DNA of 64,000 nt, from assembly GCA_963832105.1 (NCBI GenBank), contig CAWHSS010000003.1:472131-536130 (forward strand), read 5' to 3'. Under the pieces are notes generated by a model. That model saw nothing but the letters and a program-made list of their open reading frames with translations. It made no database searches and had not been told where the DNA came from. The stretch comes from an uncultured Chloroflexia bacterium (GTDB lineage: Bacteria > Chloroflexota > Limnocylindria > Limnocylindrales > CSP1-4). The position numbers and the translations under genes were made by a program. Position 1 is the stretch's first letter. Each line of letters begins with the position of its first letter. This document shows, in pieces, positions 36,706 through 41,553 of this stretch.

Positions 36706-38312
36706 GTGGAGTTGGCCGCAGTCCCGTCCCGCCTGCGAGCCCGGTGGAGCGAACGTCGCCGCCAGGCGGTGAGCGTCCGCGCTGTTGCCGGGGCCATCGC
36801 GCTCTTCCCGATTGCGACCCTCGCGATTGCCCTCGTCGAGGGTCCCCCGCTGGCCATTCCGGACGCGTCGCCCATCTACCTCGTCGCCGTCGTCGGCGTC
36901 GCCGTGCTGCTCGGCACGGGGGCGGCGGTGCTGGCGGCGTTCGTCTCGTTCCTTCTCTACGACTCGCTGTTCGTCGAGCCTCGCTTCACGCTCGCCGTCG
37001 AGGATCCCGAGGAATGGCTCAACCTCCTCCTGCTGCTGTTCGTGGCGATCGTGATCGGCAGGCTGGCTGCGCTCCAATCGGACCGGGCCGAGGACGCCGC
37101 CCGCCGGGCGCGCGAGTCGCAGGCGCTGTTCCGGATCAGCCGGACACTGGCGACAGCCCCGAACGTCGCCGACGCGCTGCCCGCGATCCTGCAGGGGCTG
37201 GCCGGGGAGACGCGGTTGAGCCGGATCTGGTTCGGCCGCCAGGTCGCCGGCCGCGAGGTGGTCGTCGCCGATACGGGATCGGATCCGCCACCCGCTCCCC
37301 GGATCCACGCCCTCCTCACCCGAACGCCGGGGGACATGCCGGCGCGCTGGGTCCGGGCGCACCAGCCCCAGGACCGCCGGGCGGACCGAACGGCGGATCC
37401 GGAAACGGAGCTGTTCCGGGTGAAGATCGCGGCCGACGAGGAGACGCTCGGGCTCGATCTGGGCGACGCGGGCGCGGCGGGACGGGTTGCCCGATCCCGA
37501 GGAGACGCGGCTGCTCAGCCTTGCGGCCGACCAGATCGGGCTCGCCTTCAAGCGCGAGAAGCTGGCCGAGACGGCCAACGCGGTCGAGATCGCGCGGCAG
37601 AGCGAGGCGCTCAAGGACGCGCTCCTGGACTCCGTGTCCCACGACCTCCGCACGCCCCTCGCCGCGATCCGCGCCGCCGCGGGCAGCCTGATGGACCCGG
37701 CGGTCGATTGGACCGACGCGCAGCGCCGCGCGACGGCGCGGACGATCGATCTCGAGGCCGATCGGCTCAACGGGCTCGTTCGCAACCTGCTCGACATGAG
37801 CCGGATCGAGGGCGGCGCCCTCCGGCCGAGCCTCGAGGTTCTCGATGTCGAGGATCTGGTCCGGCCGACCGTCACACGGCTCGCTCCGACCTTCCACGGC
37901 CGTGAGGTCGAGCTCGCGTTCGCGCCGGATCTTCCGCCCGTCCGCGCCGACGCGGTCCACTTCGACGAGGTGCTCACCAACCTCCTCGACAACGCGGCCA
38001 AGTACGCGCCCGACGCCCCGGTCCGCGTCGGGGCCACGTCATGCCCGGACGGTCGGGTGCGAATCCGGGTCGAGGACGGCGGGCACGGTGTGCCGCCGGA
38101 GACCGAAGCCCGACTGTTCGAGAAGTTCTATCGCGTGCCTCGCTCCGGCGAGGGGTCGCGGCGCGGTTTAGGGATCGGCCTCGGCGTTGTCCGAGGTCTT
38201 GCCGAGGCAATGGGCGGCGAGGCGGTGGCGGGGCGGAGCGAGCTGGGCGGCCTGGCGATCGACGTGTTCCTCCGGGCCGCCCCAGAGCCACCGGGCGAAC
38301 CGCAGCCAATGA
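36706..38312 (+). pseudogene. KdpD-like sensor histidine kinase lacking the N-terminal KdpD/Usp sensor region (DUF4118-GAF-HisKA-HATPase), ~2 frameshifts; 3' end uncertain
   Basis: ORF 36706..37905 holds the TM/DUF4118-type N-terminus. ORF 37487..38602 holds LLDSVSHDLRTPLAAI (H-box), NLLDNAAKY and GLGIGLG. The proposed stop TGA 38310-38312 overlaps the regulator ATG. Confidence 0.75.
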
Positions 38313-39015
38313 CCGCGCGGCGGACCGCGGCTGCTGGTCGTGGAGGACGACGAGGCGACGCGGGCCCTGATCGGCTCGAACCTGGACGCCCACGGGTACC
38401 GGGTCGCCGAGGCAGGCACGGCCGGCGACGCGCTGCGGGCCTGGGACGCGCAGCGGCCCGATCTCGTCGTCCTCGATCTGGGACTGCCGGACGCCGACGG
38501 GACCTCGGTCATCCGGCGCCTCCGGCGCGACGGCGACGACGCCGATCCTCATCCTCTCGGCACGCGGCGAGGAACGCGACAAGGTGGCGGCGCTCGAGCT
38601 AGGCGCCGACGACTACGTGACGAAGCCCTTCGGTATGGCGGAGCTGCAGGCCCGGATCGCGGCGCTGCTTCGGCGCGCGGCCGGGCCCGCGGCGGATGTC
38701 TCCGGATCGCTCAGTCACGGTTCCCTCACGCTCGACGTCGCGCGGCGGGAGGTTCGGATCGGCGACGCGCGCCTCGACCTCACGCCGCGGGAGTACGAGC
38801 TGCTCAAGATGCTGCTCAGCTGGTCCGGCCGGCTCGTGACCCACGGCCGGCTGCTCCGCGCCGTGTGGGGCCGGCAGTATGGCGGCGAAGATCACTATCT
38901 CCATGTCTACGTCAGCCGGCTGCGACGCAAGATCGCGGCGGCCGACCCAAGCGGCGAGTTTCGGGACCTGATCACGTCCGAGCCGGGCGTCGGGTATCGG
39001 GTCAGGGACGCCTGA
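38309..39015 (+). pseudogene. OmpR/KdpE-family response regulator, 2 frameshifts
   Basis: ATG 38309, then RLLVVEDDEATRALIGSNL...DLVVLDLGLPDADG (ORF 38340), then ILILSARGEERDKVAALELGADDYVTKPF...GVGYRV (ORF 38584..39015). Confidence 0.8.
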
Positions 39016-39058
39016 TCACAAGCCTGATCACAAGAGTGTTGAGCGCCTGTTGAGCGCG
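39011..39058. repeat. Two back-to-back tandem direct repeats: 2 x CCTGATCACAAG and 2 x TGTTGAGCGC(c/g)
   Basis: Read directly. 39011-39022 equals 39023-39034 (12 nt). 39037-39047 and 39048-39058 (11 nt) differ only at the last base. Confidence 0.6.
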
Positions 39059-39110
39059 CGGACCGCGCTCGCAGGCCCTCCCCTCTTGGGCCCGCGAATA
39101 CGTTGGAGGC

Positions 39111-39374
39111 ATGAGCCATATCTGGCCGCAGCGTCCGCCTGCCTCGGAGCGCGATCCCGTCGAGATCGCCCTCGGTGAGATCGACGTTGCGATCGCCCTC
39201 GTCCAGCGCGGCCAGGCGCGCCGAGTTCGGCTCTACGGGCTGATCGGCGCCGAGCGAGCTGCGGGCGTGGGGCTCGCCCACGCCCAGGAGGCCGGCGTGC
39301 AGTTCGGCCTCGAGCGAGGCACGGAACCGGGGCTGCCCGTGAGCCTCGTGATCGGACCCCCGATCGATGACTGA
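39111..39374 (+). CDS. Hypothetical small protein (87 aa)
   Basis: ORF 39111..39374 with high G/C at third positions and non-repetitive composition. The SD spacing is poor. No family recognised. Confidence 0.35.
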   Translation: MSHIWPQRPPASERDPVEIALGEIDVAIALVQRGQARRVRLYGLIGAERAAGVGLAHAQEAGVQFGLERGTEPGLPVSLVIGPPIDD

Positions 39375-39407
39375 GGACGCGGACGCGAGCCTGCTGGGGG
39401 CGGCGTC

Positions 39408-41553
39408 GTGATCGGTGGACGGCGACCGCTCCAGGGCCGAAAGGCAGGCGACCGCCGCGTTCGCGTCGAGCGGCCCTACGCCCCGTACTTCCGCTACGCC
39501 GGCCCCGGACAGCTCGTTGCCCGCGAGGCGGCGTCCGTCCCGAGGACGACTCGTGGCCGCGCACTGGCCCGGCTTCGGCAGCTGGTGTTCGGCAGGCCGC
39601 TCGCGAACGAGGAGGAAATCGAAGAGCGGCTGACGAAGAAGAAGGCCCTGGCGATCTTCAGCTCGGACGCGATCAGCTCGTCCGCGTACGCGACCGAGGA
39701 GATCCTGCGCGTCCTCGTCGTGGCCGGGGCGGGGGCGTTGCTCGTATCCATCCAGGTGGCGATCGCGATCGCAGTCCTGCTGGCGGTCGTCTCGGTGTCG
39801 TATCGCCAGGTCTGTCGGGCATACCCGAACGGTGGCGGCGCGTACGTCGTCGCCCGGACCAACCTCGCCCCGATCTTCGGGCTGATTGCCGCGGCCGCCG
39901 CTGCTGATCGACTACGTCATGACGGTCGCGGTCTCGACCGCGGCCGCGATCGCCCAGATCCAGTCGGTCATCCCGAGGGCCTACGACATCCGGATCGAGA
40001 TCGCGTTCATCTCGATCGCCCTCATCACGGTCGCCAATCTCCGCGGGCTCCGGGAGTCGGGGAACATCTTCGCGGTGCCGACCTACCTGTTCGTCGGCCT
40101 TGCCCTGGCGATCGTGGCGATCGGACTCGTGCGGATCGTCAGCGGCACCGTCGTGCCGGTGCCGCCGGAGCCCGACGCCGTGCATTTCGGCACGGAGACG
40201 CTCGGCGTGCTGCTGCTCCTCAAGGCGTTCGCCGGCGGCTCTGTCGCCCTCACCGGCGTCGAGGCCATCGCCAACGGCGTGCCGGCATTCAAGCCCCCGG
40301 AGTCGAAGAACGCGGCCGACACGATGACGATCATGGCCGTCCTGCTGGCGATCCTCTTCGTCGGCCTGACCGTGTTCACCGTCGCCTTCGGCCTCATCCC
40401 GACCGAGGAGGGCGGGCCGTCCATCGTCGCGATGGCCGCGAGAACCGCGTTCGGTGAGGGATCGCCCCTGTTCTACACGTTCGCCGCGAGCACGGCGCTG
40501 ATCCTGTTCCTCGCGGCGAACACGAGCTTCAACGCCTTTCCGCGCCTGGCCGCGATCCTCGCCGAAGACGGCTACATGCCGCGCCAGTTCTCGTTCCGCG
40601 GCGACCGGCTCGCCTACTCGTGGGGGATCGTCCTCCTCGCGGCGATCGCGTTCATTCTCCTCGCCGCGTTCGGCGGCGACACCCACGCGCTGATCCCGCT
40701 CTACTCCGTGGGCGTGTTCCTGTGCTTCACGCTCAGCCAGCTCGGCATGGTGAAGCACTGGTTTAACGGCCGGGAATCGGGCTGGCGCTGGCGCCTGGGA
40801 GTCAACGCCACGGGCGGCGTCCTGACGGCCGTCGTCCTCGGCATCGTCGTCTTCGAGAAGTTCGAGGCGGGCGCGTATCTCGTCGTGATCCTGGTGCCGA
40901 CGCTCGTCGGAATGATGCTGTTCATCAACCGCCAGTACGGCCGCTCGGCACGCCAGCTGGCCGTGGATCCGGCGCTCGTCGTCACCTCCCCGAAGCGCGA
41001 GGAGCGGATCGTCGTCCCGATCCACGGCGTCGACCGGTCGACGATCCAGGCGGTGAACGTCGGTCGCTCGATCGACGACGACGTTCGGGCGGTCCACATC
41101 ACGAGCGATCCAGCAGAGGCCGCGAGAGTGCGCGCGACGTTCGAGCGCCAGATCCCGGGCGTTCCGCTCGTCGTCGTCGACTCGCCCTACCGGGCCCTCG
41201 CCGGTCCACTGCTCGCCTACCTCGATGTCCTCGACGCGGCCTGGCCGCCCGACAAGCTGGAACCGATCACGTTCATCGTCATCCCCGAGTACGTCGCCAG
41301 CAGCTGGTGGGAGCGACTGCTCTATAACCAGTCGGCCAAATCCCTTCGACGGGCCCTCCTCGGCCGGCCGCACACCGTCGTCGTCAACGTTCCGTACCGG
41401 CGCGAGGAAAGCGAGTTCGAGGCCCAAGCAAGCCCGAGCGCAAGGCGACGCGAGGCGAGGAGGCCTCCGGAGCCTGACGCGCGCTCGCCTGTCACGCCGA
41501 GTGGGTGCAGACGCGCACCGGTCGCACGCTCGGAGATCCCCGATCCGGGCTAG
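39408..41553 (+). pseudogene. APC-superfamily transporter of the KimA (K+/H+ symporter)-like type with C-terminal cytoplasmic domain, one frameshift near 39895
   Basis: ORFs 39408..40457 and 39886..41553: KKKALAIFSSDAISSSAYATEEIL, YPNGGGAYVV, LLIDYVMTVAVS, LLLLKAFAGGSVALTGVEAIANGVPAFKPP, FPRLAAILAEDGYMPRQF, IPLYSVGVF, IPEYVASSWWERLLYNQSA. Confidence 0.75.

Follow-up and report, generated by a model that had tools for sequence, protein, structure and literature searches.

A KdpD/KdpE-like two-component system adjoining a KimA-type potassium transporter in an uncultured Chloroflexota bacterium

A 64,000-nt stretch of DNA (hereafter the window; ~70% G+C) from an uncultured Chloroflexota bacterium of the class Limnocylindria carries, at positions 36706-41553 of its + strand, four genes in tandem that encode a sensor histidine kinase, a response regulator, an 87-residue protein and a transporter. 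The source is a soil bacterium whose closest named relatives are Candidatus Limnocylindrales metagenome-assembled genomes (MAGs). The first two proteins resemble KdpD and KdpE, and the transporter resembles the K+/H+ symporter KimA. We consider it likely that this Kdp-type two-component system controls the KimA-type symporter, forming a K+-uptake module that works by the steps proposed below. A first-pass annotation of the same DNA had placed KimA under Kdp-type rather than riboswitch control, and comparative data support that proposal because homologues of the kinase (54-60% identity) precede kdpFABC operons that carry the same operator-like repeat.

KdpD/KdpE is regarded as a controller dedicated to the KdpFABC pump. 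KimA is, to our knowledge, known only under the control of cyclic di-AMP (c-di-AMP), exerted by a riboswitch and by direct binding. A literature search returned no report of KdpDE-type control of kimA. The parts described here are of known kinds; what is new is the coupling of a split-KdpD/KdpE-like pair to KimA with a kdp-like operator, together with a small protein that heads both types of operon. An established sensor thus seems to have been put to a second use, on another transporter.

Gene organization of the locus

The order and strand of the four genes, given in the first-pass annotation, were confirmed by open reading frame (ORF), Pfam and tblastn evidence. The kinase gene (36706-38312; GTG at 36706, TGA at 38310-38312; ~534 residues) was assigned using Pfam, NCBIfam and BLASTP. 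Its stop codon and the start codon of the regulator gene overlap (ATGA). The regulator gene (38309-39015; ATG at 38309, TGA ending at 39015) encodes a KdpE-like protein of the OmpR/PhoB family, 234 residues long. Between regulator and transporter lies a gap of 392 nt (39016-39407), which had been described as containing direct repeats and an 87-codon ORF; that ORF is indeed present (39111-39374), as are direct repeats, of which there are two sets. The ORF is a conserved gene, the first of the KimA operon, and is separated by 33 nt from the transporter gene (39408-41477; GTG start at 39408), whose product is a KimA-subfamily (KUP) K+/H+ symporter homologue of ~689 residues. As read in the window, this last frame continues to 41553, and a length of ~715 residues had been given on that basis; a frameshift near 41410-41425 places the true stop at the TGA at 41475-41477, so the length is corrected to ~689 residues.

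The window was searched for Kdp components by tblastn (E ≤ 1e-5), with E. coli KdpA, KdpB, KdpC and full-length KdpD as queries. No KdpA, KdpB or KdpC homologue was found in the 64 kb, and the earlier statement that kdpFABC is absent therefore holds within the window.

The transporter

A sequence search of the PDB (phmmer) with the transporter returned B. subtilis KimA alone (6S3K, 8B70 and 8B71). The match to 6S3K (E = 1.7e-132) pairs query residues 56-664 with KimA residues 5-604 of 607, so that the assignment to the KimA type, C-terminal cytoplasmic domain included, is borne out over the full length. The two proteins are 40% identical over 596 aligned residues. Intact homologues of the window transporter are 689-691 residues long, with up to 90-94% identity. 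In KimA, the K+ site and gate comprise D36, Y43, T121, S125, T230 and Y377, with D117 in the tunnel and E233 in proton coupling (PMC6994465). All eight of these residues (D36, Y43, D117, T121, S125, T230, E233 and Y377) are identical in the window transporter, where they are D87, Y94, D168, T172, S176, T282, E285 and Y432 of the stitched sequence. By homology, then, the transporter is a KimA homologue that groups with KimA and not with amino-acid permeases.

The pocket through which KimA binds c-di-AMP includes R337, V457, L461, P479, H579, N580, Q581 and S582 (PMC10284832). Contacts kept in the window transporter are R337, L461, P479, N580, Q581, S582 and R587, and the changes in the pocket and its surrounding network are V457S, H579Y, F565I, F568Y and W592G. 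Because the pocket is largely conserved, post-translational inhibition by c-di-AMP may persist in this protein.

The first ~55 codons of the gene (39408-39572) encode an Arg-rich N-terminal extension, MIGGRRPLQGRKAGDRRVRVERP.APYFRYAGPGQLVAREAAS..., that is nearly invariant among Limnocylindria homologues. B. subtilis KimA lacks a corresponding stretch, the alignment beginning at residue 56 of the window protein, and the extension could be a regulatory or targeting segment.

Kinase and regulator

Pfam identifies DUF4118 (residues 30-134), HisKA and HATPase_c in the kinase, and a GAF region is also present. The best NCBIfam model is KdpD, of which positions 397-886 of 895 align with kinase residues 22-528 (188 bits); among the NCBIfam models listed, KdpD alone aligns with the transmembrane (TM)/GAF region as well as with the kinase core. 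An intact orthologue of the kinase aligns with E. coli KdpD 431-886 as one collinear block (28% identity, E = 1e-37, BLASTP). The best 120 kinase homologues are all short, ~500-570 residues in nearly all, and nearly all combine DUF4118, HisKA and HATPase_c; their name in the JGI annotation is KdpD.

The kinase had been reported to lack the N-terminal module made up of KdpD and Usp domains, and three lines of evidence agree with this. Neither the KdpD N-terminal domain (PF02702, a Walker A/B serine kinase) nor a Usp domain was found in the kinase by Pfam. In the tblastn search described above, full-length E. coli KdpD matched the window with its C-terminal part only, and residues 1-400 had no match in the window. 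Finally, there is no space for a module of ~400 residues, given a stop codon upstream at ~36694 and the end of a divergent TetR gene at 36627.

Kinases of this TM/GAF/DHpCA form, without the N-terminal module, have been described as one half of split KdpD systems in kdp-containing species (Silberberg et al. 2024, PMC11018627). According to the same work, the KdpD N-terminal domain is a serine kinase that phosphorylates Ser162 of KdpB, and sites proposed to sense K+ lie in the TM/GAF part of KdpD (PMC11018627). The window kinase thus corresponds in its domains to the known kinase half of split KdpD, and its architecture is not in itself new. The serine-kinase module, whose one known function is the phosphorylation of KdpB, would be dispensable here, KdpB being absent from this K+-uptake module.

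The regulator consists of Response_reg and Trans_reg_C (Pfam). An orthologue shares 42% identity with E. coli KdpE in a full-length alignment of 224 residues, which agrees with the earlier description of the kinase's partner as an OmpR-family, KdpE-like protein. Regulators 65-71% identical to that of a close relative, locus L001, adjoin kdp operons. (L numbers denote the loci fetched for comparison. L001 is an intact relative on a short-read contig, 87% identical to the window in nucleotide sequence, and served as the reference for placing indels.)

Putative control sequences

The repeat TTGAGCGCC-TGTTGAGC lies at 39039-39055 (+), ~56-72 bp 5' of the small-ORF ATG. In full it reads TTGAGCGCCTGTTGAGC, a 6-bp direct repeat with a 5-bp spacer (TTGAGC-N5-TTGAGC), and it is the one of the two repeats that is kept in relatives. 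The degenerate form TTGAGS-N5-TTGAGS occurs once in the 64-kb window. Nine promoters were aligned: five precede a small ORF and KimA, one precedes Usp and KimA (L090), and three belong to kdp operons (L086, L087 and L090). In all nine, TTGAG-N6-TTGA, TCTTGG and the ATG are invariant. The elements follow one another at fixed distances, with the repeat first, then TCTTGG (within the CTCTTGG box of the window, 39083-39089, +), then a TACGTT-like hexamer, and the ATG six bases on.

Of the 90 fetched loci, 19 contain exact matches to TTGAGS-N5-TTGAGS, 22 in total, and each of these shares the strand of the KimA or kinase hit. Wherever the position of a repeat was checked, it was just 5' of a KimA, small-ORF or kdp gene. 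Among KimA loci that have no kinase pair, the repeat is absent except in L076 and on two short contigs.

The KdpE site of E. coli is at about -72 to -50, a position similar to that of the window repeat. We regard the window repeat as the putative operator of the regulator. In sequence, the E. coli site (TTTATA-N5-TTTACA) likewise consists of a pair of 6-bp direct repeats that have an invariant TT start and a 5-bp spacer (PMC3264566).

The two sets of direct repeats in the stretch that the first-pass annotation had put forward for regulator binding (39011-39058) have different standings, since TTGAGCGCC-TGTTGAGC is conserved and the other set is found in the window only. This other set is a perfect 12-bp tandem duplication, GCCTGATCACAA x2 (39010-39033, +), detected by a repeat search. 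It was rejected as an operator, being an insertion absent from L001, L002 and L003. The tandem spans the TGA stop of the regulator gene, and either a recent duplication event or an error of assembly may have produced it.

Hexamers resembling -10 elements stand 6 nt 5' of two start codons. One, TAGCAT (36694-36699, +), was read from the sequence before the kinase GTG, and the other, TACGTT (39099-39104, +), precedes the small-ORF ATG at a position conserved in the promoter alignment. The L001 kinase start has the same TANNNT-N6-GTG layout (TACGAT-CGGTCG-GTG). The presence of TANNNT exactly 6 nt before the kinase and small-ORF starts, in the window and in L001 alike, suggests that the kinase-regulator and small-ORF/KimA transcripts are leaderless.

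Rfam scans were run at the gathering threshold on the whole window and at E ≤ 10 on 36500-39700. No c-di-AMP riboswitch (ydaO-yuaA, the kimA leader) was found in either. Note that such a riboswitch controls kdpFABC in B. thuringiensis (PMC6488665).

Distribution and phylogeny

A scan that started from KimA in species-representative genomes gave 80 loci, nearly all from Chloroflexota, of which 63 had at least 3 kb of upstream sequence. A DUF4118 kinase adjoins KimA in 18 of these 63 informative loci. An OmpR-type regulator stands beside the kinase in 17 of the 18, and the other locus (L022) runs off the contig end. The pair is mostly upstream of KimA on the same strand; it is divergent in two loci and lies between two KimA copies in two others.

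Six further loci (L085 to L090) were obtained by starting from the kinase, and their kinase identities are given relative to the L001 orthologue. L088 (83%) has the same synteny as the window, and in L089 (68%) and L085 (70%) the small ORF is followed by KimA. In L085 a MarR/ABC segment is inserted between the pair and the small ORF, and KimA is frameshifted; this locus was first taken for a kinase pair without a K+ gene, a reading rejected when tblastn found the small ORF and KimA. The remaining three loci contain kdp genes. L086 (60%) reads kinase, regulator, small ORF, REC, kdpFABC; L087 (54%) reads kinase, REC, kdpFABC, with a separate KdpD_N/Usp gene after kdpC; and L090 (57%) reads kinase, regulator, Usp, KimA, 92-aa ORF, REC, kdpF, kdpA.

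In a neighbour-joining tree of the kinases, with the C-terminus of E. coli KdpD as outgroup, the clade that contains the window kinase has 100% bootstrap support. Its sister group, at 95%, is formed by the kdp-linked kinases, and both lie within KimA-linked kinases. All six members of the window clade are linked to KimA. To judge from the tree and these gene orders, a single kinase family serves two unrelated K+ importers, one or the other or both together.

Another kinase, of weak similarity, was seen 2-3 kb 5' of KimA in ~15 loci (L009, L035 and others). It was not counted as part of the module because it belongs to an unrelated but conserved neighbourhood (hpt, CsoR-like, kinase, rsmG, phosphoesterase) and has no adjacent regulator.

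Several of the comparison loci have features of their own. The L090 genes form a K+-uptake supercluster (6001-13641) with a Usp protein of 155 residues, a KimA of 670 and a stand-alone receiver of 140, and with two operator-like repeats, which precede Usp and the 92-aa ORF respectively. A stand-alone receiver gene (135-152 codons) is found 5' of kdpF in L086 (8640-9215), L087 (7986-8612) and L090 (11487-12081), and two of these three loci have an extra 29-aa ORF between it and kdpF. The extra receiver is perhaps a phosphate sink or a connector.

L082, from a Vicinamibacterales MAG (Acidobacteriota), is another physical Kdp-KimA link, differently built. Its sequence from -4000 to 0 relative to KimA holds the end of kdpB, a protein consisting of KdpD_N/Usp only (378 residues), a non-DUF4118 kinase (434 residues) and a protein of 253 residues in which a receiver is joined to an unknown C-terminal domain, followed by KimA.

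L030 and L089 lie on one contig (contig_814, 2,358,839 bp), so that two KimA paralogues occur in one genome. The first is 3' of the pair, operator and small ORF and is 86% identical to L001 KimA. The second, ~60% identical, is in the rsmG/phosphoesterase neighbourhood and has neither pair nor operator. The two are reminiscent, by analogy, of inducible and constitutive K+-uptake systems. Tandem KimA duplicates occur elsewhere, for example in L005, L008 and L012.

The 87-residue protein

The 87-codon ORF has 26 homologous clusters, almost all of 87 residues. Compared with L001, it shows 26 codons with synonymous differences only and 22 with non-synonymous differences. A profile search covering 1.84 billion representatives returned 190 at 50% clustering; these are mostly ~80-95 residues long, none of the 150 listed exceeds 143, and no fusion of the family to a larger protein was found in that search. 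These data identify the ORF as a real conserved gene rather than filler, encoding a stand-alone protein family that is without annotation, there being no match in Pfam or NCBIfam. An AlphaFold2 model has a predicted local distance difference test score (pLDDT) of 85 and the topology alpha-beta-alpha-beta-beta, and a Foldseek search of the PDB yielded no significant match (best E = 0.09, TM-score ≤ 0.56). We also considered whether the protein might be a fragment of Usp, which occupies the same slot in L090, and found no support for this.

Divergent relatives stand between regulator and KimA in L004, L006, L007, L015, L017 and L078. In L086 a member of the family opens the kdp operon, and the 92-aa ORF that heads the L090 kdp operon weakly shares the core motif AIALV..G.A.RV...GL. 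Because the family heads both KimA and kdp operons, one may speculate that its role is more probably connected with the regulatory circuit than with a single transporter.

Proposed mechanism

In the scheme we favour, the membrane-bound TM/GAF/DHpCA kinase, whose TM region has four helices, would sense K+ availability through its TM/GAF part. When K+ is scarce, it would phosphorylate the KdpE-like regulator, which would then bind TTGAGC-N5-TTGAGC as a tandem dimer ~56-72 bp 5' of the start codon. So bound, the regulator would activate, rather than repress, a probably leaderless operon encoding the 87-residue protein and then KimA. KimA would import K+ together with H+, and inhibition of the protein by c-di-AMP may remain as a further layer.

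Several points weigh against this scheme. The kinase scores 188 bits against an equivalog cut-off of 1123 for KdpD, a shortfall that is expected because half of the protein is missing. The regulator's top NCBIfam model, KdpE, gives 195 bits against a cut-off of 325, with PhoB close at 179. K+ responsiveness, binding of the regulator and transport by KimA are each assigned by analogy. Roughly 70% of the informative KimA loci have no adjacent kinase pair, and one clade of KimA-linked kinases (L004, L011, L013, L021, L026 and L054) is without the TTGAGC repeat; the coupling of kinase to KimA is for these two reasons lineage-specific and not universal. As for the promoter, a scan for the sigma-70 consensus found no -35/-10 pair on the + strand, and the scheme does not account for the conserved CTCTTGG box. 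Two further points, that the pair could act primarily on kdpFABC elsewhere in the genome and that the frameshifts, if real, would mean a dead module in this genome, are taken up with the alternatives to which they belong.

Alternative explanations

The pair may be a split KdpD/KdpE system whose true target is a kdpFABC operon elsewhere, served also by a separate KdpD_N/Usp kinase, with the adjacency to KimA a leftover of rearrangement or KimA a secondary target. We think this somewhat unlikely. The sister clade of the kinase is indeed kdp-linked, split forms of KdpD come from species that contain kdp (PMC11018627), and L090 has both transporters behind one pair. Set against these are the 6/6 linkage of the window kinase clade to KimA, the position of the operator-like repeat directly 5' of the small-ORF/KimA operon, its only copy in 64 kb, and the absence from the window of any match to a Kdp subunit or to the KdpD N-terminal region in the searches above. 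Note also that such a system is compatible with co-regulation of KimA; it would amend control of KimA by the adjacent pair and not replace it.

It is improbable that the pair is a generic DUF4118/OmpR system that senses a cue other than K+ (osmolarity, pH or envelope stress) and has KimA as one of several unrelated targets. DUF4118 is present in kinases besides KdpD, neither protein reaches its equivalog cut-off (KdpD or KdpE), and even in E. coli the TM/GAF part has no established ligand. A generic sensor would nonetheless have to be reconciled with the repeated linkage of the pair to two unrelated K+ systems, KimA and KdpFABC. A K+ transporter follows the pair in every context that was read gene by gene (in L085 with the MarR/ABC segment interposed), the shared putative operator stands, wherever its position was checked, only before KimA and kdp operons, and KdpD is the sole listed NCBIfam model that also aligns with TM/GAF.

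The kinase, regulator and KimA genes are all frameshifted in the window, with six single-base shifts altogether. Relative to L001, extra single bases are present at 37449 and 38306 (kinase), 38316 and 38534 (regulator) and 39898 (KimA). The sixth shift, near 41410-41425 at the KimA C-terminus, was located by comparison with homologues at 90-94% identity. Were the shifts real, the lineage would be losing these three genes; in favour of this are the five single-base insertions and one more indel within three adjacent genes. The public gene call for the source contig of 1,385,240 bp (P0118, 544 residues) is also truncated; it shows the same KimA break, which places the errors in the deposited assembly.

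Loss of the genes is nevertheless quite unlikely. A Viterbi pass based on codon usage found frame switches within genes throughout the window (1-64000), catabolic genes included (paaA, 35043-36298, is likewise split), and single-base indels relative to the relatives are dispersed across >20 kb. On either side of each shift in the module the proteins are 88-96% identical to intact relatives, and past the shifts there are no in-frame stops and codon bias is kept. Close homologues are intact at 87-94% identity, those of 90-94% among them. The extra bases in the module fall in GC-rich contexts and are mostly an apparent added C. Other contigs of the same collections with names of the form 'contig_N' have similarly fragmented genes (L003), as would fit long-read indel errors. 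This pattern suggests a systematic indel error of long-read assembly. Given frame breaks across the whole window, intact relatives and protein identity unbroken across the shifts, the six frameshifts are most likely assembly errors and not gene decay.

That the transporter is an APC-superfamily amino-acid permease and not a K+ importer, as its only Pfam match (AA_permease_2) and the JGI/NCBI names of its homologues ('amino acid transporter' or 'APC family permease') would have it, is scarcely credible against a sole solved-structure match to KimA that extends over the KimA-specific cytoplasmic domain, the retention of every K+-coordinating and H+-coupling residue, a score of 23 bits with the NCBIfam amino-acid transporter model (cut-off 557) and the linkage of the gene to Kdp-type regulators and kdp operons.

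Implications

Control of KimA by the adjacent Kdp-type pair may be part of something wider. We tentatively suggest a K+ regulon of Limnocylindria and related Chloroflexota in which one split-KdpD kinase and one KdpE-like regulator would act on KimA, on KdpFABC or on both, through a common TTGAGC-N5-TTGAGC operator and leaderless operons. The ~87-residue protein encoded by the first gene of these operons (sometimes together with a stand-alone receiver) would then belong to the circuit as a new component, such as one that modulates kinase or regulator by feedback, and not be a transporter subunit.

If control of KimA by the pair is correct, the TM/GAF/DHpCA core would qualify as a portable sensor of K+, and the KdpD N-terminal module would be dispensable exactly where KdpB is not the target, a natural experiment in favour of the 2024 tandem-kinase model. 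The analysis also supplies a testable operator sequence for an uncultured and abundant soil phylum, flags a small protein family at the head of both KimA and Kdp operons, and corrects the widespread annotation of these KimA homologues as amino acid transporters. To a specialist in K+ homeostasis the coupling should appear logical rather than shocking, and the comparative data support it well.

Neighbouring features of the window

Directly upstream, on the - strand (32145-36627), is a phenylacetate-catabolism cluster (paaABCD-like genes, a 3-hydroxyacyl-CoA dehydrogenase and a thiolase), together with a TetR regulator. A promoter-like sequence of the TetR gene, TTGACA-18-TATCGT, lies at 36686-36657. 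This phenylacetate/TetR neighbourhood is conserved in L001, L003 and L088, and it appears to be unrelated to the K+ module.

The sole Rfam match at gathering level in the window is ASdes (41973-42040, - strand; 57 bits, E = 8e-11), a mycobacterial antisense small RNA of desA. Here the match lies antisense inside an acyl-ACP desaturase-like gene just 3' of KimA, and the probable reason for it is that the coding sequence of the desaturase is conserved.

Comparison with known systems

Compared with B. subtilis KimA (6S3K, 8B70), the window transporter has the same 12-TM LeuT-fold region and C-terminal cytoplasmic domain, and it keeps the eight K+/H+ residues and most c-di-AMP contacts. It differs in its ~55-residue Arg-rich N-terminal extension and in some pocket residues. 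Its gene also lacks an upstream c-di-AMP (ydaO/kimA) riboswitch and is preceded instead by a two-component system, an operator-like repeat and the 87-aa ORF.

With the riboswitch control of Firmicutes (the B. subtilis kimA leader, B. thuringiensis kdpFABC) the proposed circuit would share its outcome, namely that a high-affinity K+ importer is made only under K+ scarcity. The controlling layer in the window would differ, being a two-component protein system and a DNA operator rather than an RNA leader; there is no Rfam match to such a leader in the window, and the 5' region is probably leaderless.

Relative to E. coli KdpD/KdpE, the window kinase is collinear with KdpD 431-886 (TM helices, GAF, DHp and CA), the regulator is 42% identical to KdpE, and the kinase stop and regulator start overlap. 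The kinase differs in having no N-terminal serine-kinase/Usp module of ~400 residues, neither protein reaches the NCBIfam cut-off for its equivalog (KdpD or KdpE), and the neighbouring target is KimA, not kdpFABC. As to split KdpD (PMC11018627), the window kinase has exactly the architecture of its TM/GAF/DHpCA half, and L087 and L086 carry the complete split arrangement around kdpFABC. In the window clade, by contrast, the kinase is coupled to KimA with no KdpD_N/Usp or kdpFABC nearby, a coupling that the split-KdpD paper, in which KimA is mentioned once, does not describe (PMC11018627).

Finally, the operator-like repeat has the build of the E. coli KdpE site, with a 6-bp direct repeat, a 5-bp spacer and half-sites that start with TT, and differs from it in the half-site itself, which is the GC-rich TTGAGC where E. 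coli has TTTATA and TTTACA.

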